64,000 bases of DNA from an uncultured Chthonomonas sp. (GTDB lineage Bacteria > Armatimonadota > Chthonomonadetes > Chthonomonadales > CAJBBX01), in NCBI GenBank assembly GCA_903951425.1, contig CAJBBX010000118.1, positions 85,273-149,272 on the forward strand, read 5' to 3'. Below are positions 4,574-18,125 of this stretch, in pieces. The translations under genes and the position numbers were made by a program. Every line of letters starts with the position of its first letter. The stretch's first letter is position 1. The notes under the pieces were generated by a model that did not search any database, was not told the origin of the DNA, and saw nothing but the letters and a program-made list of their open reading frames with translations.

Positions 4574-4605
4574 CCACAGCCTGAGCTATAGGCGCGGCAC
4601 CTCGC

Positions 4606-5548
4606 CTACAGCCCAAGCTCCTCCGGCGAGCGGGCGTCGAGCATCTGCACGCCCAGCAGGCTCGCCTCTTCGTCGGTGAGCGTGGCGGTCCTGCCGCGGT
4701 GTGCGTCGTTTGGCGGACCGAACCGACGCTCCAAATGGGCGGATCAGCATCGCGTGCGCCGCTTCCATTCGACCCTCGTCCACGCCCAGGCGGCGGCCCT
4801 CGTCCACGCCGATCCGGCGCCCTTCGTCGACGCCCAGCCTGTGTCCCTCTCGCATCAGGGCCTCGGCCCCTGTCATGGTCATTTCATTCACCTCCTCATG
4901 CCTCTCGCCCTGGGCCTCCGGCGGCAAGGCCTCCAGTTCGCGCATGGCGGTGGCCAGAGCCGCCTTCATCGCCTCGGTGTCACCGTCCGCCGCCAGCAGG
5001 ACCCGCAGCACGGTGGCAAGCGGCGACAGGCCGTCGGACGCCTCGGGCAGTCCGTCAAGCCCGACGAACAGCGTTTCGTGCCTCGGCACGAACCGTTGTA
5101 GCGCGGCGGACGCCTGCATGACGGCCTCCAGCCCCGGCACGCGCGCCCAGCGGCGCTTGCCCGTGTAGAAGACCAGAGGCACGATGGGCGCCAGCCTGCG
5201 CCGACCGGAGCGCGGTCGCTCCTGCTCCCAGCGGTGCCGCTGCATGTCCCATACCTGTACCATATACGAGAGCACCCGCAAGTTCATCCACAGGTCGGGC
5301 TTCGACGGGTGCTCCACGAGCAGGTGAATCCAGACCTCCGACTTCCCGGTGCGGAAGGGCACGCGGTAGAGGAGGTCGGCCTCCTGCTTATGCAGGTCGG
5401 CGGGAACGAACGATCGGTTCACCCGTTCGGCGCTCCCGAAGTCCAGCGCGTCGGCCACCAGGTCGCGCAGGTTGGAGGTCGACTCAAGCAGCCAGAGCGT
5501 GCCGCGGTCGGCGAACTCACGGATCGGGGGGTCGTTGGCATCGTGCAT
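4606..5548 (-). pseudogene. Rpn/YhgA-like recombination-promoting nuclease (putative transposase), degenerate
   Basis: SFVPADL...EADLLY, LLVEHPS, PIVPLVFYTG motifs and EG repeats. Frameshift near 4737-4739, with a DUF4351-like tail (HLERRFG...LDARSPEELGL*) in another frame. Confidence 0.75.
4773..4848 (-). repeat. 24-nt tandem repeat (x3) encoding EGxRxGVD
   Basis: CCYTCGTCSACGCC at 4773, 4797 and 4821. Typical of Rpn C-terminal EG repeats. Confidence 0.8.
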
Positions 5549-5704
5549 AGCGGCGGAAGCCCCCTCACACAATAATCGCCGACACGGGCCGACAAGCTGA
5601 ACAACGGAGCGACTGTCGCCGATCTGATCATCGCGGCACGTACCTGACAGGCGGTGGCCGCAGCTGCTACGACCCGCCGGGCGTGCTGGGCCAGACGTGC
5701 CGAA

Positions 5705-5732
5705 GGGCCGGGCATCACACGATGCTCGGCCC
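5705..5732 (-). terminator. Hairpin downstream of the T2SS operon
   Basis: GGGCCGGGCATC-acac-GATGCTCGGCCC, 28 nt past the last stop codon, one non-Watson-Crick position. Confidence 0.5.
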
Positions 5733-5759
5733 CTCGGTTCGCGTGTAGCAGCCTGCAGG

Positions 5760-6620
5760 CTACTGCGGAGGTCGGTTGCCGCCGCCGCCGGGGCCACCAG
5801 GACCACCAGGGCCGCCGCCGCCCATCATGCCCGGACCGCCCATGCCGAAGCCGCCCATGCCGCCTCGACCGCCGCCCATACCGCCCATGCCGCCCATGCT
5901 CATGTTGACGCCGATACCGGTGGCGAGGAAGACGCCGTCATCGGCCTCGCCGCCCATGGCCATGATGCGATCGCCCACCTTAACGCTGGCTAGCGTGACG
6001 GTGGTGATCTTGGTGATCTTGGCATCGGGCGCGAGCTTGATGATGACCGACACGTCCTTGCTGACGGCGATGGTCAGCGGAGAGGTGGCGGAAACCTTGC
6101 CCGTCACCGACCCGAAGGCCATGGCAGGCTGCTGCGGCTGCTGGCCACGGTTGCCCTGGCCCTGCGCCGCCTGGCCGGGCTGGCCGCCCTGCCCCGGACC
6201 ACCTGGCCCGGGACCACCCTGTCCCGGCTGGCCGCCGGGGCCGCGGCCCATGTTCATGCGCAGGAAGTCAGGCATCTGGCCCGCGTTGATCGAGTTGGCC
6301 GTCAGGCCGGTGGGCATGCCCTGGATTTGGACCTGGTCGTCGACCTTCAGGTCGGAGACCTGGATGGTCACCTGACCCGCTACCTGGGTCTGCGCGTTGA
6401 CGCGGACCGCCGTCTCACCGCCTCCACCGAAGGGCGAGTTCACCATGATGGTGCTGGCGGCGCGGTCGATCGATGCGACCGTGCCCATGACGAAAGGCAT
6501 CCTGCCCATCTGCCCGGGGCCGCCCATGCCCGGTCCGGGTCCCATCCCTGGTCCCTGTGCCGAGGCCGCGGTTGCGACTGCGGCCAGGGTCAGAGCGGCC
6601 AGCCAACGTGTGGTTCGCAT
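5760..6620 (-). CDS. Secreted Gly/Met/Pro-rich protein with two DUF5666-like beta domains
   Basis: Signal peptide MRTTRWLAALTLAAVATAASA. Two repeats of the form GxV...(L/V)KVxDx(V/I) separated by GPG/GMG low-complexity tracts. Last gene of the gsp operon. Confidence 0.65.
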   Translation of the reverse strand: MRTTRWLAALTLAAVATAASAQGPGMGPGPGMGGPGQMGRMPFVMGTVASIDRAASTIMVNSPFGGGGETAVRVNAQTQVAGQVTIQVSDLKVDDQVQIQGMPTGLTANSINAGQMPDFLRMNMGRGPGGQPGQGGPGPGGPGQGGQPGQAAQGQGNRGQQPQQPAMAFGSVTGKVSATSPLTIAVSKDVSVIIKLAPDAKITKITTVTLASVKVGDRIMAMGGEADDGVFLATGIGVNMSMGGMGGMGGGRGGMGGFGMGGPGMMGGGGPGGPGGPGGGGNRPPQ

Positions 6621-6661: not shown

Positions 6662-9427
6662 TCACGACTTACCGGGGACCTTGGCGCCATCCTTGGGAGC
6701 TTCAGCGGGTGCGTCCTTGGCGGGCCCGTCCTTCAGCGGCACGAGCTTTGCCGGCTCGTCCTTTGCCGCGGCTTGGGGCTGGCCCAGCCGAGAGTTGAGC
6801 ACCTTCTCAAGGGTCTTGGGCTGCAGCTGCCCTTCAACCTGCTCGCGTAGTGCGCGGGCGTCGGCCTCGTCCCTCACCACCTTGGGGCTGAGGAAGACAA
6901 GGAGCTCGGTCTTCGACTTGGTCTGGTTGGTCGATCGGAAGGCGGCGCCCAGCAGCGGGAGGTCGCCCAGGATCGGGATCTTGTTCACGGTAGAGGAGAG
7001 GCTGCCCTTGATGATGCCGCCCAGCACCACGGTCTCGCCGTCGCGGACGCTGACGGTGGTCTGCGCCTCGCGCTGGTTGACGACCGGTGCGTTGAAGTCC
7101 GTGTACCGCACGAAGTCGTTGGCGGTCTGGGTCACGTCCATCGTCACGTAGCCGTTCGAGGTGATGCGCGGCGTGACGGTCAGGACGATGCCTACGTCCA
7201 TGAACGAGTAGCTGTAGGAGTAGTTGCCGTTCGAGTCCACCCGCTGGTTGGTGACGTAGGGCAGGCTCTGACTGATATTGATCTCGGCCTCGGAGTTGTT
7301 GCTGGTGAAGATGCGTGGCGTGCTGAGGACCTCGAACCGGTTGTCGGTCTTGATGGCGCCCAGGAAGCCCGAGTACTCCTTGGCTGTGAGTGTGTAGCGC
7401 ATGCCCTGGGGCTGCGCCGCATCGGCCGCCAGGCCGAAGGCCGTCGTGATGGCCGAGCTGCCGCCCTTGAAGTTCCACTCCATGCCCAGCTTGTTGGTGG
7501 CGTCCAGGCTGGCCTCGACGATGAGCGTCTCGATCATCACCTGCTCGGGTATGCGGTCCAGCTGATCCAGGATCTTCTGCAGGACCTCGCGGTTCTGCGG
7601 CGAAGTGACGATGATGACGCTGTTCGTGTTGGTGTCCGCGATGGCGGAGACGGTGCCGGAGAGGTTCTGGTAGGTGACCACGCGGCCGGAGCTGTCATAG
7701 CTCACGGCGTTCTGTGTGGAGGACTGCGAGGAACGGTTGCCGCCGCCGCCGCCCATGATCTGCGAGATCATGCCGCCGAAGCCGCCCATGCCCTGCGCCC
7801 GAGCGAGCGCCACCGCTTTGGGGTCGACGCCGCGGCGTACAGCATCGACGATCTCGTCGTCGGTCAGTACTTCGGTAGGCTCAACCTCGGTGACCTGGGC
7901 CGGAGCGTTCAGGCCCGGCAAGCCGCCGGTATTCCGGTTGTTGGTGGTGCGGGTGGTGCCGGTGTTGGTTCGGGTCGATCCGGTGCCCGTCCGGTTCGTC
8001 GTTGACCCGGCGCGTCCGCCGCCGAACGAGCTGTTGAGGAGCGAAGCCACCGTATCGGCCCGAGCGTTCTTCAGGCTGATGACGAATGCGCCGGTCTCGA
8101 ACTTGATCGGCTTGTCGAGCTCCTTGATGACCTGCTGGACGACTTCCTGGTTGTCCGGCACCGTGGTGACGATTAGCGAGTTGGTGCGCGTCTCAGCCGC
8201 CACTGTGCCCACGCCGCCGGTGGCGCTACTGCTGCCGCGGTTGCCGCCGAACATCCCGCCGAACATCCCTCCTCCTCCGCCGGTGTTCTGCTGGCCGGTG
8301 TAACCGCGGCCGCGGCTTGCGTTGGCGTTCAGGACGTTCATGATGATCGATGTGAGGTCGGAGGCCGTCGCGTACTCCAACGGGTAGACCTTGGAGATCT
8401 GGGCCTTGTCGGCCTCTTTGTCGATCTCGCCGATCAGCTTGAGGATCTGCTCGTGGTCGGTAGCCGAGGCGTTCACGATCACGCTATTGCTGTAGTCGTC
8501 GGAGGAGGCGCGCACCGTGGATGACTGGCTGCTGCTGCCGCCGCGCCGCCCGAAGGGGTTCATGCCACCGCCGAACATGCCGCCGCCACCGCCGAACATA
8601 CCGCCGCCGCCGCCGAACATGCCGCCGCCACCGCCGCGCTGCGCCACCAGCTCAAGGTTCGATCCGGCATCGCCGCCTTGCGCCTGGTTGACGGCCGGGA
8701 CGATCCGTCCGCTATCCGTGCGCTGGCCGGGCGTGGGAGTGGTCGTCGGAGCGGCGCCTGGCGCGCCGCCCGGCGTAGCGGGTGCGCCGCCGGGTGTGCC
8801 ACCGGGCATCCCGGGCATGCCGCCGGGCATCCCGGGCAACCCCATCATCCCGGGCATACCGAACATACCAAAGCCCTGGTTGGCCGTGAGGGCGAAGACG
8901 TCGTTGATGACGCGGGCCACCTGGCTGGCGCTGGCGAACTTGATGCTGTAGACCCTGAGCACGGTGTTGGACTGTTGGCTCGAGCCGAACATCGACGCCA
9001 TGGCTGACATGTCGAACCCGCCCGTCCCCGACGAGCCGCCGCGGCCGCTTCCGCCGCTACCACGCTGCTGCTTCTGCTTGACGACCATCATGGCGCCGTC
9101 GCGCTTCAGCTCATAGCCGCGGAGGCCCAGGGCGACGCTGAGCATCGAAAACGCGTCGCGGAGGGTCTGCTGCTTGGGGCTCTGCAGGGTGATCGGCTGC
9201 GTGAGCGACGGGTCCTTAACGATGGGGATGCCGCTGGCCCGGCTCAGCACCTGCAGAACGGCGTCTACGCTGGCATTGCGGAAGTCCAGCGTCACCTTCA
9301 CCTTGGGGTTCAGCCTGTGCGTCGACCAGAGCGTCTCGTCCTCACCGAAGAGGTCCATCTGCGCAGGCGACGGCGCTACCGTCAACAGGAGCAGAGCCGC
9401 TCCTGCCAGAAGTGTGAGCGATCTCAT
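6662..9427 (-). CDS. gspD: Type II secretion secretin GspD with large low-complexity insertions
   Basis: Signal peptide, N0 (LDFRNASV), repeated N domains (NSVIV/NSLIV...LD), QVMIETLIVE, LSTPRIFT, GETVVLGG, KIPILGDLPLLGAAF, ELLVFLSP. Confidence 0.92.
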   Translation of the reverse strand: MRSLTLLAGAALLLLTVAPSPAQMDLFGEDETLWSTHRLNPKVKVTLDFRNASVDAVLQVLSRASGIPIVKDPSLTQPITLQSPKQQTLRDAFSMLSVALGLRGYELKRDGAMMVVKQKQQRGSGGSGRGGSSGTGGFDMSAMASMFGSSQQSNTVLRVYSIKFASASQVARVINDVFALTANQGFGMFGMPGMMGLPGMPGGMPGMPGGTPGGAPATPGGAPGAAPTTTPTPGQRTDSGRIVPAVNQAQGGDAGSNLELVAQRGGGGGMFGGGGGMFGGGGGMFGGGMNPFGRRGGSSSQSSTVRASSDDYSNSVIVNASATDHEQILKLIGEIDKEADKAQISKVYPLEYATASDLTSIIMNVLNANASRGRGYTGQQNTGGGGGMFGGMFGGNRGSSSATGGVGTVAAETRTNSLIVTTVPDNQEVVQQVIKELDKPIKFETGAFVISLKNARADTVASLLNSSFGGGRAGSTTNRTGTGSTRTNTGTTRTTNNRNTGGLPGLNAPAQVTEVEPTEVLTDDEIVDAVRRGVDPKAVALARAQGMGGFGGMISQIMGGGGGNRSSQSSTQNAVSYDSSGRVVTYQNLSGTVSAIADTNTNSVIIVTSPQNREVLQKILDQLDRIPEQVMIETLIVEASLDATNKLGMEWNFKGGSSAITTAFGLAADAAQPQGMRYTLTAKEYSGFLGAIKTDNRFEVLSTPRIFTSNNSEAEINISQSLPYVTNQRVDSNGNYSYSYSFMDVGIVLTVTPRITSNGYVTMDVTQTANDFVRYTDFNAPVVNQREAQTTVSVRDGETVVLGGIIKGSLSSTVNKIPILGDLPLLGAAFRSTNQTKSKTELLVFLSPKVVRDEADARALREQVEGQLQPKTLEKVLNSRLGQPQAAAKDEPAKLVPLKDGPAKDAPAEAPKDGAKVPGKS
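8573..8635 (-). repeat. 21-nt tandem repeat (x3) encoding GGGGGMF inside gspD
   Basis: GAACAT at 8573, 8594 and 8615, each followed by GCC/ACC runs. Confidence 0.85.
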
Positions 9428-9428
9428 T

Positions 9429-10025
9429 TCAGTTCGCCTTCCTTTCAATTGCCATGCCTCGCCCCCGCAGTGCGGACAGGTCGATGCGCAGAGGCTGTAC
9501 ACCCGTTGCGGCCGGAACGGGCCGGACGGGCTCATTCTTGATGTCGCCGCCGGCCGCTTCGGCCGGATCGGGGAAGCTCAGCTTCGTCACATGATTCTTA
9601 CGATCGCGCAGGGCAACCGCAACAGCATCTATGGACTGCACCAGCAGACCGTCCCATTTCTGCCCCGATTGGAGCTCCATGGCTTCTTTGGTGGCGTCGT
9701 TCTCAACGACGGCGATGCGGGACCCGTTGACCACGCTGATGCCGGTAAGACGCCATGTGCCGCCGCTGCCCACCACCCCAGGCCGTCCACCGTAGGCCGC
9801 GGTCCGGCCGGAGACCACCTGGGGGTCGAAGGCGTTCCGGCCCGTTCCGGCGTAGCGGGCGAACTTCACCGATGCGACGTCGGCGCCGCCGGCGGTCTTG
9901 CCCGACCTATTGGCCGCCACGACGCCGCTCTGCGTCGTTGTTTGCGGGGTCGTGAGCATCACAGCCGCTATGATCACCGCGGCTCCAACCGCGATGTAGA
10001 GGACAGGGCTCTTGCCGCTAGCCAT
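9429..10025 (-). CDS. GspC/PilP-like membrane-anchored protein
   Basis: N-terminal TM segment, RNAF, and WRLTGIS...AVVE beta module. Directly upstream of the secretin. Confidence 0.55.
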   Translation of the reverse strand: MASGKSPVLYIAVGAAVIIAAVMLTTPQTTTQSGVVAANRSGKTAGGADVASVKFARYAGTGRNAFDPQVVSGRTAAYGGRPGVVGSGGTWRLTGISVVNGSRIAVVENDATKEAMELQSGQKWDGLLVQSIDAVAVALRDRKNHVTKLSFPDPAEAAGGDIKNEPVRPVPAATGVQPLRIDLSALRGRGMAIERKAN

Positions 10026-10584
10026 TTCGCTTGACCCCCTTCGCTGCCTGCGCAGGCGCCACAACCGACCGGATGAAGGCCGATACACCCAGCGTGGCGC
10101 TTACCGTGTCAGTGGCGGCATCGGCGGAAGCCAGCTGCGCCGAGCGGAGAAGGATACGGGTGCCCGGCTTGTCCAGCATGGCCAGGAAGGATCGGACTTC
10201 GGGGTACGTACCGATCACCTGCACCGAGAAGGGCAGTTCCGTGATGCCCTGGTAGTCCACCACGCGCTGGGCGCGGAAACCGGCCATCTTCAGGTCGCGA
10301 GCGTCGGCCTCACGGGTTAGGCCGGCCATGAGGGCCGAGGTGACGGCATCGGAGTCGCCCGGCCAGATGCGCTTGGCGGCGGCCTTCTCGGCCGATGTTG
10401 CGTCGAGCTGGGCCTGGTCACGCGTGCTGTTGAGCTTGGCCAACGTCTTGCGGTGGCTGTTCTGCGCGGCCTCCGGGTCGGGTCGAGGCGCTACGGTGAT
10501 GAGGCCCACGGAGGCCAGGATCACGAGCAGCGACAGGACCAGAACCGTGATGGAGACCATACGGCCGTGGCCGGCATCCTTCAT
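10018..10584 (-). CDS. GspM/PilO-like inner-membrane platform protein
   Basis: Single TM, coiled segment, ELPFSVQVIGTYPEVRSFL ferredoxin-like signature. Position in operon. Confidence 0.7.
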   Translation of the reverse strand: MKDAGHGRMVSITVLVLSLLVILASVGLITVAPRPDPEAAQNSHRKTLAKLNSTRDQAQLDATSAEKAAAKRIWPGDSDAVTSALMAGLTREADARDLKMAGFRAQRVVDYQGITELPFSVQVIGTYPEVRSFLAMLDKPGTRILLRSAQLASADAATDTVSATLGVSAFIRSVVAPAQAAKGVKRNG

Positions 10585-11885
10585 TGCGCACCTCCGGCCG
10601 AGCCGGCCGTCTGCCCCGGCTTGCGGATGGGCTTGGCGGCCTTCTTCGGGGGCGTCGGCATGGCAGGGTTCCCCGCCGCCGCGGCCGACACGCTGAATTG
10701 CACGACGGGCACCATGCCGATGCGGCTGGTGTTGGCCGAAACGAGCCGGGCATCGGCCACACGAGGCGTGCGGCCAAGGCTGTCCAGGATGCCCGCCACC
10801 TGCGTCGGGTTTCCTGCGGTGCCGCGAACCTGGATGGGCTTGCCGCGCTCCACGCTGAGGCCGGTGATCCAGACCTCCTGCGGGAGGCTGTCCGCCACGA
10901 CGTTCACGAGATCGCTGATTGGTTGACCTGGCTCGAAGGCGTCCCTGAGGGTTCCCTGCACGGCCGTGGCATGCTTGGCCCTGTTGATAGCGGATTGGGC
11001 GGCCGAGCGGCGCTTCCCGGTCTCGCGGGTCTGGGCGCCTGTCACGCGGGCGGCGTCGGCCATAGCCGCCCCACGGTCGCGCCATGCGGTCACGCCCAGG
11101 GCCAGGGCCACACAGGCGGCCAGGGCGGCTGATCGCGCCAGGATGGCCGAGCCGCGCGTCTCCTGCCGAACCCTATCCTCGGGGAGGACGAAGTCGAAGA
11201 GCGGCGCGTCGGGTAGCAGGTCCACCGAGTGGCCCTCGAGGGGCTCGCCGCCGGGGATATCAACCGAGCCGATGCAGAGCACCGGGAGGCCCTCGGCCTC
11301 GGCGGCGGCAGCGGTGCGGCGCACCTCGGTGGCGTCGTCGCCAGGGGCGGTCAGGCGTGCGAGTACGGGCAGGCCGTCTCGGATGACATCCACGGCCAGG
11401 CCGGCATCGGTGGCCTCGGCCACCACGGCGTCATGGCGCCCCGCGGCGGCGGCCAGCGCGGCGGCTCCGAAGGAGGCCGGCACGATGCGGAGCGGCACGA
11501 GGCCTGCGGACCGGGCGGCGGCGAGGAGGTCGCGCAGGTCGCTGACGCGCATGGCGGCGACCAGGGTCGTGCAGCCCTCGGAGCCCTTGCCCGCCGACTG
11601 CGCGACGTCGAAGACGATCTCGTCCGGCGCCATGGGGAAGTGCGTGGCGATCTGGGCGCCGACCATCTTGCGGAGGTCGGCGCGGGCGGCGCGGGGCAGC
11701 GTCAGCACCCGCAGGAACACATGGCTGCGCTCCACGCCGATGACGACCTTTCGGCCTCGCCCCAGGATCGGGGTCAACTCATCCAGCCTTGCGGCCGCCT
11801 TGCGGCTCCCCGTGGCGGGATGGACCGCCCTGACCGACCCTGGCGACCAGACGACCGCCGGAAGAGCGTGATGTCCGTGTTTCAT
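10581..11885 (-). CDS. GspL / PilM-PilN-like platform protein
   Basis: Cytoplasmic actin-like part (FLRVLTLP, HFPMAPDEIVFD), a TM segment, and a PilN-like domain (LPQEVWITGLSVE...VRGTA). Confidence 0.7.
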   Translation of the reverse strand: MKHGHHALPAVVWSPGSVRAVHPATGSRKAAARLDELTPILGRGRKVVIGVERSHVFLRVLTLPRAARADLRKMVGAQIATHFPMAPDEIVFDVAQSAGKGSEGCTTLVAAMRVSDLRDLLAAARSAGLVPLRIVPASFGAAALAAAAGRHDAVVAEATDAGLAVDVIRDGLPVLARLTAPGDDATEVRRTAAAAEAEGLPVLCIGSVDIPGGEPLEGHSVDLLPDAPLFDFVLPEDRVRQETRGSAILARSAALAACVALALGVTAWRDRGAAMADAARVTGAQTRETGKRRSAAQSAINRAKHATAVQGTLRDAFEPGQPISDLVNVVADSLPQEVWITGLSVERGKPIQVRGTAGNPTQVAGILDSLGRTPRVADARLVSANTSRIGMVPVVQFSVSAAAAGNPAMPTPPKKAAKPIRKPGQTAGSAGGAQ

Positions 11886-13120
11886 GTGGATCCTACCGTT
11901 GTCGAGTATGTAGCATCTTGGTTCCAGCCCCACCACGAAGGCGCTCCGGAGCCGGGCGCCCTTTGCCAGGTGATCACCCGGACCCGATCACTGTCCTTGC
12001 GAACCACCACCTCCACCGCCTGGCCTTGGCCACCGCTGGACCCGTAGGCCCGAATGATCCAGACGTCGCTGCCCACCACCAGCCGGTCGGCGATCTCGCC
12101 GAGGAGGCTACCCTCCAGGCCCGGGATCGTGGCCAGCTCGCCCAACGACGCAAGCCCGGCGGACTGGCGCGAGACGATGTTGGCAGCGATATCGGACGTC
12201 ATGTTCGGCAGCGTCATGAGTACAGCCTGCGAGACGGTATTGGCGTTCATCTTTCCGTGTAGACGTGTGCTGTTGGTAAAGGTGACCGCATCGAGCAGTT
12301 GCTGGGCCATCTCGGGGCTGACGCCGGGCGTCGTGAGGAGCTGCTGGAAGTTGGAGTAGGGCCCGGCGTCGGCCAGCCGTTGGGCCAGCATGGGGTCGGC
12401 GCCCATCTGCATGAAGAACATGGGGCTCAGTTGGCCCGAGCCCACGTTGCTGCGCGTGCTGCCGTCGGCGCGGGTGTTGGGCGCGCCGCTGTCGGAAGTG
12501 AAGACCCGCGCAAGCGGGATGGCGTTACCGCTGTCGTCGTCCAGTGAGACGCCCGTGCGGAGGTCCTCGTCGAGCGTCGTGTAGAGGCGCCGCGCGGTCC
12601 AGCCCTTGACCAGGAGCAACTCGTCGACGGTCTGGATCGTCCCCCGGCGGGCGTTGTACGGCGGGGTCAGCGAGTTGTAGTAGCTGTCCTTGGCGCCGAC
12701 GGCTCGTGGCAGGGTGCTTCCCTCCCGCCAGTCCAGCAGGCAGTCCCGCATCTCGTCGTCGATCGGCAGGAGGTCTAGCTGCTCCTCCTCGGCGAAGTTC
12801 ACGTCGATCATCGCTCCGGCATCGACGATCTCCAGCCGAAATGTGCTGTTGCCGACGGTGTACTCGGCATTCCCGAGGTCGCCCAGGGTCGCCCAGTCGT
12901 CTGCCAGGGTGACGAGGTTCGAGTCGGCGGCTTCAAGCGTGGCGATGGCCAACGCCACGGCCGACCTGGCGGCGAAGTCGGCGCGCTGCAGCCTGAGCCG
13001 GTTCTGCGCCGCTTGCATGGACTCCCGCTGGTCGGCGGCCAGCATGGCCATCAGCGCCACGAGGCACGCGACGAGGACCAGCACCTCGACCAGCACGAAG
13101 GCTCCCTTGCTGCGCCTCAT
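11882..13120 (-). CDS. gspK: Minor pseudopilin GspK
   Basis: Prepilin-like N-terminus, IVDAGAMIDVN, LLDWR, DELLLVKG, GKMNANT, HhH-like segments. Confidence 0.85.
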   Translation of the reverse strand: MRRSKGAFVLVEVLVLVACLVALMAMLAADQRESMQAAQNRLRLQRADFAARSAVALAIATLEAADSNLVTLADDWATLGDLGNAEYTVGNSTFRLEIVDAGAMIDVNFAEEEQLDLLPIDDEMRDCLLDWREGSTLPRAVGAKDSYYNSLTPPYNARRGTIQTVDELLLVKGWTARRLYTTLDEDLRTGVSLDDDSGNAIPLARVFTSDSGAPNTRADGSTRSNVGSGQLSPMFFMQMGADPMLAQRLADAGPYSNFQQLLTTPGVSPEMAQQLLDAVTFTNSTRLHGKMNANTVSQAVLMTLPNMTSDIAANIVSRQSAGLASLGELATIPGLEGSLLGEIADRLVVGSDVWIIRAYGSSGGQGQAVEVVVRKDSDRVRVITWQRAPGSGAPSWWGWNQDATYSTTVGST

Positions 13121-13845
13121 TCGACCGACCCCGTGACCGTGCTGTTGGCGTCCACGTCGCTTGCGGGCACGGCCACCGTGAAGGTCCGCACCGTCTCAGT
13201 GGCGTCATCGGCAAGCACGTAGCTGACGAGGATAGCACCCGGCAGGCGACGCTCGGTGGCGGTATCCCAGGTATCGTCCCATGATTCGCCGTTCCAGAAG
13301 CGAAAGCCGATGCTGCCCACATGGCCGGAGAGGACGCGCTGGTTGCCGCCCTGGGTGTAGTCGCCGTCAGAAGGGCGCTGGATGCGAACGAGGAGGCCGT
13401 CGACGCTCTCGGTGCGCCCCTGGAGCTGGCCGCCAAGCTGCACCTCGGTGACGCCGCCGGCCGGGCCTGCCGCCGTGTACTGCGTCTCGTAGTCATCCTC
13501 GCTCAGGAGCGGACCGAAGTCGGGCGCCCCGGCGGTGGTGGTGAAGACGAGCGTGTCACATCCCAGTGTGCCGGTGTCTCCGGTGGCGTCGGCCGTGCCC
13601 ACCATGTACGTGGTTGTGTCCTCCGCGTCCTCGGTGAGCTTGGCGCCCTCGATGAGTCGGGTGATCTGGCGCTCCAGTGAGGCTACCGGGTCGGTATCGG
13701 ATTGGCGGGCGGTATGGCGGCGCTGCTGGTCGAGTCCGGCCATGAAGCCGTAGCCAACGGCGCCTGTCAGCGTGGCCGTGAGGGCCAGCACCAGCACCAG
13801 CTCGATCAGCGTCAGGCCCGACCGGCCCATTCGTCGCGCGCTCAT
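13117..13845 (-). CDS. gspJ: Minor pseudopilin GspJ
   Basis: G|LTLIEL cleavage motif. FRFWNGESWDDTWD...LPGAI signature. Confidence 0.8.
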   Translation of the reverse strand: MSARRMGRSGLTLIELVLVLALTATLTGAVGYGFMAGLDQQRRHTARQSDTDPVASLERQITRLIEGAKLTEDAEDTTTYMVGTADATGDTGTLGCDTLVFTTTAGAPDFGPLLSEDDYETQYTAAGPAGGVTEVQLGGQLQGRTESVDGLLVRIQRPSDGDYTQGGNQRVLSGHVGSIGFRFWNGESWDDTWDTATERRLPGAILVSYVLADDATETVRTFTVAVPASDVDANSTVTGSVE

Positions 13846-14216
13846 TCGCTCACCGATGTGAGCGGGCGCACGTACTGCAGGAACGTGAGCGACTGCTCGT
13901 CGTCGCCGAGCGTCGCGGCCACGGTGACCTCGTCCACATCGGTGGCGCCGCTGGTCTGGACGTCGATGGTCCACATGATGTCGGGGTACCCTGCGTCCGT
14001 GAAGTCGCCGCCGTCGCCGAACGACGATGGATCGGTCGAGGCGATGACCTCGTTCGCCTTGGCGGTCACGAGCCGCTGCAGAAGTTGGTTGCGGGCTACC
14101 TTCACGTCGGCCTGGCCCAGGGCGCGCAGGCCACCCATGACGGCCGTGACCGCCACAGCCACCAGCAGGGCGGCCATGAGCACCTCGACCAGCGTGAAGC
14201 CCCTGCGCCTACTCAC
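13842..14216 (-). CDS. gspI: Minor pseudopilin GspI
   Basis: G|FTLVEVL, short length, GDGGDF...WTI, lies between H and J. Start uncertain (GTG 14216 or 14231). Confidence 0.75.
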   Translation of the reverse strand: MSRRRGFTLVEVLMAALLVAVAVTAVMGGLRALGQADVKVARNQLLQRLVTAKANEVIASTDPSSFGDGGDFTDAGYPDIMWTIDVQTSGATDVDEVTVAATLGDDEQSLTFLQYVRPLTSVSE

Positions 14217-14736
14217 GGACCTCGATCTCACCGGCCGTCCACTCCGTCTCGTTTTGCTCTTCCGGCTCGCCTCGCAGCCAGTAGGCGCGCCCCTCCTTGG
14301 TGAGCGTCAGTGTTCGCACATCGGCGCCGTCGACGAACGTCAGCGAAGCCTCGGCGGCCCTTCCGTCCGGGTAGGCCCACCACTCCCACTCGCCCTGGTC
14401 GATCTCGGTGCCGGCCTGCTGCTGGGAGTCCAGGGTGAACCAGTCGGCGAACGCAACCCGCGTGACTTCCTGCGCCTCGCCGTCGATTGGCACCTGCTCC
14501 ACGACCAGCGCATCCTCCAGCACGGTCATACGGACCGGGTTGCCTGAGCTCTGGGCGCTGTTCAGGGCCGTGATGGGTGCACGGGCCAGCTTGGCCATGA
14601 CATCGTCACGCTCACGGGAACGGCGAATCATCACCAGGTTGGGCACAACGATGGCCGTGGCAAGCAGCAGCACCGCCACCACCGCGTTCATCTCGATGAT
14701 GGTGAAGCCACGCTGTCCAGCCAACCTGCGCCTCAT
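14209..14736 (-). CDS. gspH: Minor pseudopilin GspH
   Basis: G|FTIIEM, YPDG motif, directly after gspG. Confidence 0.7.
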   Translation of the reverse strand: MRRRLAGQRGFTIIEMNAVVAVLLLATAIVVPNLVMIRRSRERDDVMAKLARAPITALNSAQSSGNPVRMTVLEDALVVEQVPIDGEAQEVTRVAFADWFTLDSQQQAGTEIDQGEWEWWAYPDGRAAEASLTFVDGADVRTLTLTKEGRAYWLRGEPEEQNETEWTAGEIEVRE

Positions 14737-14757
14737 GTCGGTGCCCTGTCTCCCCGC

Positions 14758-15201
14758 CTACTCACTGGTGATGTCGGCGTTTTCCGCCGAGCCGCCCGCC
14801 GCGCCGTCGGCGCCGTAGGAGGTGATTGAGAAGTCTTCGCCGTTCGCGCCCGGCGACTCGTACACGTACGGGTTGCCCCACGGGTCCAGCGGAATCTCCC
14901 GACTCGTATAGGGGCCGCGCCAGTTGGTGGCGTCGGAAGGCTGCACGCGGAGGGCGTTGAGCCCCTCGTCGCTGGTCGGGAAAGCGTCGTTGTCCACGCG
15001 GTACTGCTGCAGGACGCTCCCCAGCGTGGCGATATCCGAGGCCGCCTTGGCGATCTTCGCGTCCTCGGTGCGGCCTACCACGCGCGGCACGACCAGCGAA
15101 GCCAGGATGCCCAGGATCAAGATGACCACAAGCAGTTCGATGAGCGTGAAGGCCCCCCGCCGGCGATCCACACGGGGCTGCCTGAGCATAGGCCCGATCA
15201 T
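14758..15201 (-). CDS. gspG: Major pseudopilin GspG
   Basis: [19 protein letters not shown]...GLNAL, WRGPY, PLDPWGNPYVY, SYGADG...ADI. AGGAGG RBS before ATG 15201. Confidence 0.95.
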   Translation of the reverse strand: MIGPMLRQPRVDRRRGAFTLIELLVVILILGILASLVVPRVVGRTEDAKIAKAASDIATLGSVLQQYRVDNDAFPTSDEGLNALRVQPSDATNWRGPYTSREIPLDPWGNPYVYESPGANGEDFSITSYGADGAAGGSAENADITSE

Positions 15202-15212
15202 GGCTCTCCTCC

Positions 15213-16430
15213 TCACTTCACCAACGCCTGCGCCTGGAAGATAGGCAGCAGCACTGAGACGACCACATAACCGACGAAGACGCCCATGGAGAGCACGATG
15301 ACGGGCTCCACCAGGGCTACGAGTCGACGCATCCCCGTATCGACCTCGAAGTCGAGGCTGTCGGAGACGCGGCTGAGCATGAGCGGCAGGTCGCCGGTCT
15401 CCTCGCCGATGGCCACCATGTGGGTCAGGACCGGCGGGAATGCACCTGCGTCCGCCATGGCTTCGGCGATGGGACGGCCCTCGCGGACGTCGGACTCGAC
15501 CTGCTTGGCGCTGACCGCGAAGAGGCGGTTGCCGGCCGCCAGGCCGCTGATGTCGATGGCCTCCAGGATCGGCACTCCGCCATAGACCAGCGTGCCCAGG
15601 ACGCGGGCGAAGCGGGAGACCGTTGCCTTGGTGATCACAGGGCCGACCACGGGCAGGTTGAGTAGCGCCTTGTCACGGGCGAATGCGCCCGCGGGCGTGC
15701 CCAGCCAGACCCGCAGGCCCACCACGATGGCCACGATCGAGCTGATCACAACCACCCAGTTCTCAACGATGAAGACGGCGACGGCGATCAGAATCCGCGT
15801 AGGAGCGGGCAGGTCGCCGCCGAGGTCCTTGAAGACGCCGGAGAGCTTGGGGATGACGAAGGTCATGAGGAACGTGATCACGGCCAGGGCGGTCATGGAG
15901 AGGATCGCCGGGTAGACCAGCGCGCTGACGATCTGGCTACGCCGGGAGACTTCCTTCTCCTGCAAGTCGGCAAGTCGCGCCGCTACCTCGCCGAACTGCC
16001 CGCTGGCTTCGCCTGCGCGGAGGGTCTGGGTGTAGACCTCGGCGAAGAGCCTCGGGTGCTTGGCCAGCGCCTGGCTCACCGGCAGTCCGCCGCGCACATC
16101 CTCCAGCGCCTGTGCGCAGACCGCCTGGAGCACGGGGCTCTCGGACTGCTCGCCCACCACGTGGAGGACGCGGTCCAAGGGCAATCCGGCCCGAGCCAGG
16201 TCCGCGAGGCGCCTGGTGAAGACCGCCATGTCCTGCGCGGCCACCTTGCCGTGGATGTCGTGCCCCGAGTGGCGCTTGCCGCTGGAGCCTGCCTGGGCGA
16301 TGTCGGTGACGAACCGGCCCTCGGCGGCCAGGCGGGCGATGGCCGCCTCGCGGGTCTCCGCCTCCACCACGCCGGTGCGCTTGGCGCCGGAGCTGTCGAG
16401 CGCGGTGTAGTTGAAGGTGACGGCGGGCAT
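15213..16430 (-). CDS. gspF: T2SS inner-membrane protein GspF
   Basis: AGLPL, AGEASG, ALVYP, GGVPILEA, MVAIGEETGDL, EP motifs. Confidence 0.92.
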   Translation of the reverse strand: MPAVTFNYTALDSSGAKRTGVVEAETREAAIARLAAEGRFVTDIAQAGSSGKRHSGHDIHGKVAAQDMAVFTRRLADLARAGLPLDRVLHVVGEQSESPVLQAVCAQALEDVRGGLPVSQALAKHPRLFAEVYTQTLRAGEASGQFGEVAARLADLQEKEVSRRSQIVSALVYPAILSMTALAVITFLMTFVIPKLSGVFKDLGGDLPAPTRILIAVAVFIVENWVVVISSIVAIVVGLRVWLGTPAGAFARDKALLNLPVVGPVITKATVSRFARVLGTLVYGGVPILEAIDISGLAAGNRLFAVSAKQVESDVREGRPIAEAMADAGAFPPVLTHMVAIGEETGDLPLMLSRVSDSLDFEVDTGMRRLVALVEPVIVLSMGVFVGYVVVSVLLPIFQAQALVK

Positions 16431-17995
16431 CAGAGCGCCTCTCTCTGGCAGACCCTGAGCACCTCATCGGGCGACGTCTTTCCGTCCAGCACGGCCAGGC
16501 GGCCATCGCCGAGGAGGGTGCGCATGCCCTGCCGGCGGATCGCGTGGTCGCGCATGTCGTTGGAGCTGGCGCGGTCCACCGTGAGCCGCCGGATTGGCTC
16601 GTCGACGATGAAGAGCTCAAAGAGCGCGTGACGGCCCTTATATCCCGTCTGCTGGCATCGGTCGCAACCGGCGCCGCGCATGAGCGTGCCGCCGGGCAGG
16701 TCGGAGCCCTCGATGCCGATGGCCTCCAGCGCCTCGGCGCGCGGCTCGTAGGGCTGGGCGCAGTTGGCGCAGATGCGCCGCACCAGCCGCTGGGCGACGG
16801 TAGCCACCAGCGATGAGGCCACCAGGTAGGGCTCAACGCCCATGTCCAGCAGTCGGGTCACGGCGCCGGCGGCGTCATTGGTGTGCAGCGTGCTGAAGAC
16901 GAGGTGGCCGGTGAGCGCCGCGTGGATGGAGATGTCGGCCGTCTCATGGTCGCGGATTTCGCCGACCATGATGACGTCGGGGTCCTGCCGCACGATGCTC
17001 CTGAGGCCGTTGGCGAAGGTGAGCCCGATCTGCGGGCGCACCTGAATCTGGCTGATGCCGGGTACCTGGTACTCCACCGGGTCCTCGATGGTCAGGATGT
17101 TGGTGGTGGACGACCAGATCTCCTGGAGCGAAGCGTAGAGAGTGGTCGACTTGCCGGAGCCGGTGGGCCCGGTGGAGAGGATCACGCCGTGGGGCACGCG
17201 GATGATGGTTCGGAACCGGGCCAGCGCGTCCTGCCGCATGCCCAGCTCTTCCAGCCCCAGCATGGCTGTGGTCTTGTCCAGGATGCGCATGACGGCCCGC
17301 TCACCGTAGACGGTGGGGACGATGCTCACGCGGACGTCGATGGCGCGGCCGGCGATGGTGATCTTGATGCGGCCGTCCTGCGGGAGGCGCCGCTCGGCGA
17401 TGTTCATCTCGCCCAGGATCTTGATGCGGGAGATGATGGCGGCGTGCATCCGGCGGGGCGGCTGGAGCGCGTCGCGGAGCATGCCGTCCACGCGGAACCG
17501 GACCTTCACCTGCCGCTCGTAGGGTTCGACGTGGATGTCGCTGGCCCCGTCGCGCACGGCCTGGGCGAAGATGAGGTTCACCATCTGCACCACGGCGGCC
17601 TCGCCGGCCATCTTCTGCAGGTCGGCAAGGTCGGTCGTGTCGTCGATCTCGGCGCCGGCCTGGTCGTCGGCCTTGTCCGGCAGGCCGGACAGGATGCGCT
17701 CGATGAAGATCTCTTCGATGAGGGCCCGGATGAACGACGGAGCGGCCAGCACGGCGCGGGTGGGGTACCCGACCAGCTTGCCCACTTCGTCGGCCGCGGC
17801 GAGGGCGGTTGGGGCGCCGATGGCCACCGTCAGCACGCCGTCGCGGAGCTCCACGGGCAATACCTGATGCCGGAGGGCCAGTTCGGGCGGCGTCAGACGG
17901 ACGGCCTCCTCGGACGGCTTGACGACCTCCAGGTCTATCCACTCGAAGCCCTGCCGGCTGCTCGGCGTCTCCAAGGACCCCATCGTATCGCTCAC
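16430..17995 (-). CDS. gspE: T2SS ATPase GspE
   Basis: ASDIHVEP, LPQDGRI, GPTGSGKST, TIEDPVEY, RQDPDVIMVGEIRD, TGHLVFSTLH, tetra-Cys motif. Start chosen from a GGGGGAAG RBS (alternatives 17983 and 18064). Confidence 0.93.
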   Translation of the reverse strand: MSDTMGSLETPSSRQGFEWIDLEVVKPSEEAVRLTPPELALRHQVLPVELRDGVLTVAIGAPTALAAADEVGKLVGYPTRAVLAAPSFIRALIEEIFIERILSGLPDKADDQAGAEIDDTTDLADLQKMAGEAAVVQMVNLIFAQAVRDGASDIHVEPYERQVKVRFRVDGMLRDALQPPRRMHAAIISRIKILGEMNIAERRLPQDGRIKITIAGRAIDVRVSIVPTVYGERAVMRILDKTTAMLGLEELGMRQDALARFRTIIRVPHGVILSTGPTGSGKSTTLYASLQEIWSSTTNILTIEDPVEYQVPGISQIQVRPQIGLTFANGLRSIVRQDPDVIMVGEIRDHETADISIHAALTGHLVFSTLHTNDAAGAVTRLLDMGVEPYLVASSLVATVAQRLVRRICANCAQPYEPRAEALEAIGIEGSDLPGGTLMRGAGCDRCQQTGYKGRHALFELFIVDEPIRRLTVDRASSNDMRDHAIRRQGMRTLLGDGRLAVLDGKTSPDEVLRVCQREAL

Positions 17996-18062
17996 TGGCT
18001 GCTTCCCCCACGGTTCGGCCGGCTGCGCCCATCGGGCGGCTGTACATACTGACGCGCCGGAC

Positions 18063-18125
18063 ATGAACGAATCATGAAAGACCCGGCTGGGCGGGTCTCG
18101 CGTGCGGCCTTCATCGACTTTTCAT
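18063..18125. promoter_or_regulatory. Two oppositely oriented TTCAT-N6-TTCAT tandem boxes, candidate OmpR-family binding sites
   Basis: ATGAA at 18063 and 18074, TTCAT at 18110 and 18121. 11-bp period, in the divergent intergenic region. Confidence 0.55.

Follow-up and report, generated by a model that had tools for sequence, protein, structure and literature searches.

Conserved phenylalanine- and glycine-rich inserts in three N domains of a GspD secretin from Armatimonadota

It is a long-standing question how secretins let folded proteins through and yet remain sealed, and most structures leave the disordered constriction at the N3 domain unresolved. Here we analyze gspD, a secretin gene at positions 6662..9427 of a 64,000-nucleotide stretch of DNA from an uncultured Chthonomonas sp. 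(contig CAJBBX010000118.1; hereafter the window), whose product carries long, Phe-studded, Gly-rich inserts in each of its N1, N2 and N3 domains. This triple Phe/Gly insert is the new part of what is otherwise a regular GspD; it is real and conserved and apparently undescribed so far, and a plausible mechanism can be proposed for it. Our preferred reading, to which we give a probability of about 0.45, is that the loops form a cohesive, displaceable plug that adds sealing to the secretin. As a natural variant found across the phylum, with an enlarged N3 loop, copies of that loop in N1 and N2 and selection for Phe stickers, this secretin offers a handle on whether the constriction seals, grips or selects.

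Judged from its sequence, the 6662-9427 product is the GspD secretin of a type II secretion operon, regular in all features tested. The reading frame (minus strand, as are all features given below) is intact and carries every motif quoted here; its start, ATG 9427, was inferred from a signal-peptide-like N-terminus and the agreement of homologues. The 921-residue protein comprises a signal peptide (about residues 1-22), N0, N1, N2, N3, the secretin beta-barrel and a disordered C-terminal tail. Pfam finds PF00263 (Secretin, E 3.8e-48), three stretches of PF03958 (Secretin_N) and, under the curated cut-off, N0 (PF21305, E 1.6e-5), which together with an AlphaFold2 model give N0 plus three ring-building N domains. 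The best fold matches are GspD/PulD, the beta strands of the secretin barrel are present in the model, and a search of the ESM Atlas returned generic secretin clusters only. The barrel (6827..7543; placed by Pfam, comparison with XcpQ and AlphaFold2) has intact central-gate hairpins and a lip region not longer than that of XcpQ, so a top gate is probably absent.

The loops, L0 to L3, were cut between conserved anchors of an alignment of the gspD product and 119 homologues (120 proteins). L0 (8966..9079; residues 117-154, 38 residues) is the N0-N1 linker, a Gly/Ser-rich stretch followed by FDMSAMASMFG, and holds GGFDMSAMASMFG (8984-9022; residues 136-148). The other three lie at one topological site, between helix 1 and strand 2 of successive N domains. 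L1, in N1 (8519..8893; residues 179-303, 125 residues, 6 FG dipeptides), contains GFGMFGMPGMMG (8840-8875; residues 185-196) and (GGGGGMF)x3-GGGMNPFG (8549-8635; residues 265-293), the latter encoded by a 21-bp tandem array of 3.5 copies; L2, in N2 (8213..8329; residues 367-405, 39 residues, 2 FG), contains GGGGGMFGGMFGG (8243-8281; residues 383-395); and L3, in N3 (7661..8029; residues 467-589, 123 residues), opens with SFGGG (residues 467-471) and later carries GMGGFGGM (7769-7792; residues 546-553). L3 matches the variable insertion of InvG and the unresolved PulD loop 288-303; the profile match of the gspD product to PulD chain 6hcg_A starts at 303. This placement of all four loops comes from AlphaFold2, run on a 94-sequence alignment, which also gives a predicted local distance difference test (pLDDT) score below 50 over residues 123-152, 184-301, 372-404, 471-519 and 544-574. 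An earlier note, made from the bare sequence, had described four disordered-looking, Phe-spaced inserts in or between the N domains, and motifs, placement and predicted disorder all bear this out. L3 is not of low complexity throughout: one stretch is made up of Thr/Asn/Arg, and the middle is acidic and in part helical (helices 523-545, pLDDT about 65).

Together, L0-L3 span 325 residues with 12 Phe, 19 Met and 11 FG, against a mean of 3.6 FG in 5000 composition-preserving shuffles, none of which reaches 11. The Phe codons are 11 TTC and 1 TTT. An assembly artefact is unlikely, as two sequencing runs from other studies yielded contigs identical to parts of L1, L2 and L3; short contigs of one RNA run match L2 and the 3' end of gspD, although contigs cannot show transcription. 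FG runs often start directly after AQ, QQ or PQ (in L3 of 92/120 proteins and L1 of 67/120; window 7769-7800 and 8549-8650), and the mature N-terminus likewise has Phe at most 8 residues after AQ in 100/101 orthologues.

The named relatives of the gspD product all belong to Armatimonadota and include an orthologue in a cultured species, Fimbriimonas ginsengisoli (P0093). Across the 120 aligned proteins, identity to the gspD product is 24% in the loops versus 59% in the core, lengths range from 35 to 131 residues for L1 and from 78 to 156 for L3, and the three closest homologues have Gly runs of different lengths. Phe is found in every one of L1, L2 and L3 in 120/120 proteins, no protein has fewer than 9 loop Phe, and at least 5 FG occur in the loops of 115/120 (21/22 after thinning to <70% core identity); over the whole set there are 1127 FG, compared with 541 ± 19 in 200 shuffles. 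The loops hold 1818 Phe, 51 Tyr, 8 Trp, 182 Lys and 2390 Arg and the core 2920, 1184, 257, 4186 and 2762, respectively, meaning that Tyr, Trp and Lys are nearly absent from the loops and that Arg is favored over Lys. Selection thus appears to act on the chemistry of the loops rather than on their sequence. The earlier note had named both Phe and Met as stickers whose conservation in orthologues was to be checked; Phe is conserved, and Met is not. Loop Met ranges from 0 to 25 per protein (median 7), and all Gly-rich tracts in the genome that carries this gspD show a 4-fold excess of Met, which rules out Met as a conserved sticker and makes the GM flavor of the loops a local habit. Loop Phe and Met counts show no trade-off (Spearman -0.09, p 0.32).

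That genome (G000; 4353 proteins called by script, the gene calls being crude here and in the two further control genomes, G026 and G190) also allows us to ask what the loops share with their surroundings. It has 128 Gly-rich tracts in 83 proteins, many of them exported, and the loops are underlain by tandem DNA repeats, as would be expected if exported proteins of Armatimonadota and planctomycetes simply gathered low-complexity tracts of Gly, Phe, Met and Gln at any site that tolerates an insert, without a role at the gate. GGFGGFG is likewise encountered in LTXXQ, S9 peptidase, TPM, HlyD-type and anti-sigma proteins. This neutral account sits poorly with the Phe content, which in G000 is 5.5% in the Gly-rich tracts of secretin proteins and 1.7% in 120 other tracts, in G026 12.1% (3 secretin tracts) versus 2.9% (12 others) and in G190 5.0% (2 secretin tracts) versus 1.7% (21 others), the last two being small samples from 0.8 Mb each; the excess is about 3- to 4-fold in 3/3 genomes. 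Nor does any of the 120 aligned proteins fall below 9 loop Phe, and since Phe codons are AT-rich in a high-GC genome, GC pressure works against loop Phe. We therefore regard neutral accumulation as improbable, and as the least probable of the readings weighed here. That the composition would differ from an ordinary Gly linker, as the earlier note supposed, is upheld by these small samples, and a high-GC linker artefact is ruled out by the AT-rich codons of Phe, Met and Asn together with the within-genome controls.

A working definition of FG-repeat proteins, at least 5 FG in 200 residues, is given in the text of a review (PMC8311347). It is passed by 23/4353 proteins of G000, including this GspD (7 FG in its best 200 residues, joint third); a second GspD ranks first and a stand-alone STN protein with an FG tail second. 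The second GspD (G000:C21:4478-7129, L112) belongs to a separate partial gsp cluster and has FG-rich N-domain loops. A PilQ-type secretin of the same genome carries a Gly/Met loop at the same site as the GspD loops.

The earlier note had proposed comparing FG counts of orthologues with those of other type II secretion system (T2SS) secretins; the threshold of 5 FG per 200 residues is passed by 110/120 aligned proteins versus 0/12 proteobacterial GspDs, the latter picked for diversity among the best 40 from 544 plasmid records. These 12 mostly have a single N3 insert, rich in Ser/Thr/Ala/Gly with 1.3% Phe. More distant multi-N secretins (30 loci from a sample of 201 genomes across the phylum) have a shorter Gly spacer and keep aromatic clusters such as PTGFFFFVF and GGFFWWW. 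At least 2 Phe or Trp within 8 residues occur in 336/360 orthologue loops, 45/69 distant-secretin loops and 1/9 proteobacterial loops. The hidden Markov model loop finder used missed most short proteobacterial N1/N2 loops and mis-called some; filtering kept 9/10, 69/77 and 262/291 loops. Only 5/30 of the distant proteins reach the FG threshold, and it is therefore Phe, more than the FG dipeptide, that is the phylum-wide trait. Farther afield, giant secretins of 1600-4600 residues with many N domains (P0122-P0226) come, where named, mostly from Phycisphaerae and other planctomycetes. In the 105 secretins longer than 1612 residues, the FG threshold is passed by 21/39 of those below 2300 residues, some with tandem GFGGGGQ repeats; by eye, many of the FG runs in this group follow the N-domain helix at the same site. 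A relative of the FG-rich giants is found in Fimbriiglobus (Planctomycetota); its own loops are of the GGF type, and it has only 2 FG per 200 residues.

Phe/Gly tails also occur beyond the loops of secretins. A DNA pattern for GGFGGFGG gave matches in 17 of 41 genomes, from which 21 distinct loci were read, one match (G037:C4) being left out; a reversed-pattern control also encodes G-F/L-G-G and was hence unused. The 21 GGFGGFG loci comprise 5 GspD, 1 N-domain module without a barrel, 6 FG-tailed STN/N0 proteins (3 identified by Pfam and 3 by likeness), 2 loci that, judged by eye, are probably parts of such systems, and 7 others. The trait is concentrated in secretin systems and is not exclusive to them. 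In the small stand-alone STN-FG proteins, an STN/N0 domain is followed by what appear to be the opening strand and helix of an N domain and then by a long FG/GM tail, like a secretin N-terminus that ends inside the loop. One (G000:C156:115028-115717, L104) is encoded just upstream of the PilQ-type secretin with the Gly/Met loop, and L069, L071, L072, L075, L076 and L084 are similar. The barrel-less module (L110:3966-5408, G037:C3:163965-165407) is a 480-residue exported protein with N0, N1, N2, half of N3 and a dense GGFGGF tail; no barrel gene follows it, and the gene before it is DUF5666-like by eye, with no tblastn match. In the window itself, gspD is adjoined downstream by a gene (5760..6620, the start at 6620 being read off the sequence) for an exported protein with Gly/Met/Pro-rich linkers and a GMGGFG tail, assigned to DUF5666 by a weak Pfam match (E 7e-5, below cut-off). 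DUF5666 was considered as an obligate partner and set aside, a homologue being found in only 3/15 related loci, several of which end early downstream. A tailed LTXXQ-like or DUF5666 gene follows gspD in 4/15 loci; none was seen in the other 11, again with several ending early. LTXXQ we take to be the Spy/CpxP chaperone family.

The plug that we favor depends on where the loops point. In solved secretins (InvG, PulD, pIV), the N3 loop at this site makes up the periplasmic constriction while the pore is closed and moves away when a filament enters. The disordered N3 loop of f1 pIV is directed into a pore 74 Å wide there (PMC8563730), and PulD loop 288-303 is unresolved in its structure (PMC6882859). 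An inward N3 loop is supported here by homology to these three proteins; the N1 and N2 loops probably also reach the lumen, given a similar ring stacking, and homologues suggest a 12-15-mer outer-membrane channel for the secretion of folded proteins, with about 15 subunits per pore. The earlier claim that the loops lie in or around the channel accordingly holds for N3 in part: homology supports it for the closed state, and the InvG loop goes outward when the needle fills the lumen. With L1-L3 in 15 copies at 95 Da per residue, packed into a vestibule that we assume to measure 7.5-10 nm across and 10-15 nm in height, the loops would reach 580-1540 mg/mL for this protein and 420-1130 mg/mL for the median orthologue. 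Nup98 FG particles are at about 250 mg/mL (PMC4283134), and because the estimated mass exceeds this gel density, the loops can fill the vestibule and must overflow or partly exit it.

An excess of chain would also suit loops that act as glue for assembly, threading outward or between rings and folding on contact. They would then stabilize the stack of N1-N3 or serve as a dock for STN-FG proteins, in a secretin whose neighborhood has no evident pilotin gene. The equivalent InvG loop does exit, form a helix and stabilize the N domains, the PulD N0-N1 linker is wedged between N1 domains (PMC6882859), and L2 and L3 contain conserved sub-motifs, among them LxTxV..Q (92/120 proteins). Most loop residues, however, are repeats of variable length that expand by slippage, and a distributed sticker fits these better than a stereospecific interface; we consider glue quite unlikely.

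In the plug model, the Gly-rich, Phe-studded inserts of the N1, N2 and N3 rings would cling together in the assembled ring as a soft plug, its mass made cohesive by presumed Phe-Phe and Arg-Phe contacts, that occupies the periplasmic entrance and spills beyond it until displaced by cargo and pseudopilus. This Phe/Arg-stickered brush would yield to the pseudopilus as the InvG loop yields to the needle. It would make the pore, in which a top gate is probably absent, more watertight and may briefly grip hydrophobic surfaces of cargo. The usual contacts of GspC, N domains and pseudopilins would remain the source of specificity and GspE that of energy, with no part played by partitioning into a gel. 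The likeness that suggests a sealing element is to XcpD, where an added top gate gives non-specific watertightness without selectivity; top-gate classes have been described in the same work (PMC10550240).

Several observations weigh against this model. It is built on a monomer prediction and homology, and the AlphaFold2 model is weak overall (predicted TM-score 0.35). Inward orientation is documented for N3 alone, and in the needle-filled state the InvG loop threads outward between N3 and N1 and partly folds. The mass above gel density means that much of the chain cannot fit inside the assumed vestibule. PulD has a luminal plug without such long loops (PMC6882859), and plugs therefore have other sources. 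G000 itself encodes three tandem short secretins without FG loops (G000:C73:28711-33352), with no gsp genes adjoining in the stretch listed, and the FG threshold is reached by 0/66 secretins of 2300 residues or more. Finally, 7/21 GGFGGFG loci lie outside secretin systems: LTXXQ, S9 peptidase, TPM, HlyD-type, anti-sigma, one unknown and one probably off-frame.

If gripping rather than sealing were primary, the loops would be holdase bristles, short amphipathic Phe/Met elements that hold hydrophobic patches or lipid anchors of cargo and pass the cargo to the pseudopilus tip. The GGM tails of GroEL and the Met bristles of SRP54 are models for such elements. Short amphipathic elements do recur (FDPSMF, NPFQQMF, QRFQAAARF), with QRF/DRF/RQF in L2 of 83/120 proteins; the aromatic clusters persist without Gly spacers in distant lineages, and LTXXQ proteins have similar tails. 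Against bristles, Phe is strongly preferred to Leu, Ile, Val, Tyr and Trp, and FG dipeptides are more frequent than composition predicts, both of which point to self-cohesion more than to a generic hydrophobic grip; a Gly/Met loop sits at the same site in the PilQ-type secretin of G000, presumably a conduit for a pilus; and the reading names no cargo. On balance, bristles seem to us an unlikely primary role.

The earlier note went further and proposed a selective gel for large cargo, similar to that of the nuclear pore. Here the FG meshwork would be permselective and cargo would partition into it, escorted by Gly/Phe-tailed periplasmic proteins (STN-FG proteins, LTXXQ and DUF5666 neighbors). 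The FG threshold passed by 110/120 proteins is in keeping with this, as is a fraction of Phe, Ile, Leu, Val and Met (17.5% here, median 16.1%) close to the 13-17% of Nup98, which with pLDDT below 50 for disorder we counted as Nup98-like. The PEX13 YG domain is such a phase evolved outside the nucleus for folded cargo (PMC9795577), and escorts could be found in the 6/21 GGFGGFG loci with a stand-alone N0/STN and FG tail, the N0-N3 module without a barrel and the tailed gene after gspD in 4/15 loci. Two benchmarks fail. The loops have 3.4 FG per 100 residues here (325 residues, four loops), with a median of 3.5 and a maximum of 6.5 among the 120 proteins, about half the density of Nup98 domains (6.3-10.3; the type domain has about 8 per 100 over about 550 residues, some 43 FG; PMC4283134), and a chain has about 8 FG spread over four short loops. 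Charged residues make up about 13% of the loops, roughly five times the 2.5% or so of Nup98 (Asp+Glu 4.0% and Arg+Lys 7.1% here, medians 4.8% and 8.75%), L1 coming nearest (6-7%). The tailed neighbor was not seen in 11/15 loci, several ending early, and with the central gate intact and a piston ATPase and pseudopilus present, no diffusive filter is needed. We think a selective gel unlikely as an account of the loops. Equally unlikely is the wider proposal that Armatimonadota and some planctomycetes convergently built such a phase in secretins, with STN-FG proteins, barrel-less N modules and tailed LTXXQ/DUF5666 proteins as co-gelling subunits or cargo carriers. If the loops did phase-separate selectively, bacteria would have arrived convergently at an FG barrier within a far simpler pore, the third such barrier after nucleoporins and PEX13.

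Upstream of gspD, the operon continues with a probable GspC-like gene (9429..10028; assigned by position, without a Pfam match), of which a homologue lies upstream of gspD in 15/15 related loci. Then come GspM/PilO-like and GspL/PilMN-like platform genes (10018..11885; Pfam and related loci), the pseudopilins GspK, GspJ, two N-methyl minor pilins (probable I and H) and GspG (11882..15216; Pfam), and gspF with gspE, an ATPase with an MshEN domain (15213..18064; Pfam). The operon thus has ATPase, platform and pseudopilins G-K, and the order J, K, L, M, C-like is preserved in related loci. From the MshEN domain within GspE (window 16430-18064), and from what we take its function to be, the system may be regulated by c-di-GMP. 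Just downstream of the operon lies an apparently frameshifted open reading frame (window 4586-5806), presumably resembling an Rpn/YhgA-type transposase.

No description of FG-rich secretin loops was found in the open full-text literature, subscription papers and supplements being outside that search. The text of the FG-protein review, which tabulates worm and human proteins, has no match for bacteria or secretin (PMC8311347). The main text on nuclear-pore-like structures of Gemmata (PMC5287468) likewise has no FG repeat, phenylalanine or secretin; a bioRxiv count gave "fg repeat" twice, and supplements were outside the search.

Among known systems, the closest relatives are the T2SS secretins GspD, PulD, XcpQ (XcpD) and ExeD (6HCG, 5WQ7, 5WLN, 5ZDH, 6I1X), with which the protein shares the N0-N1-N2-N3-secretin order, the gate hairpins and an operon of E, F, G, J, K, L and M. 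Whereas the 12 proteobacterial GspDs have long inserts almost only in N3, with about 1% Phe, here N1, N2 and N3 all carry them, with about 6%. The Dickeya OutD secretin is said to have a Ser-rich loop, which was not found in the paper checked. The variable N3 insertion of InvG (217-267), PulD (288-303) and f1 pIV occupies the same topological site and is also disordered and tied to the periplasmic constriction; in contrast, the insert here has 78-156 residues in N3, is repeated in N1 and N2 and has a conserved Phe/Gly bias. Nup98 FG domains and the PEX13 YG domain resemble the loops in being disordered and rich in Gly/Asn/Gln/Thr, in having a single aromatic residue that dominates, and in the many copies tethered at a pore for folded proteins (PMC4283134, PMC9795577). 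The GspD loops are not homologous to them and are short, double-anchored and Arg-rich, in a pore that keeps its hard gate and piston. The Vibrio-type optional top gate, an accessory constriction that adds watertightness without specificity, is the functional model that we propose for the loops; the top gate forms a cone of folded beta-hairpins at the outer face (PMC10550240), whereas the GspD loops would be a disordered mass on the periplasmic side.

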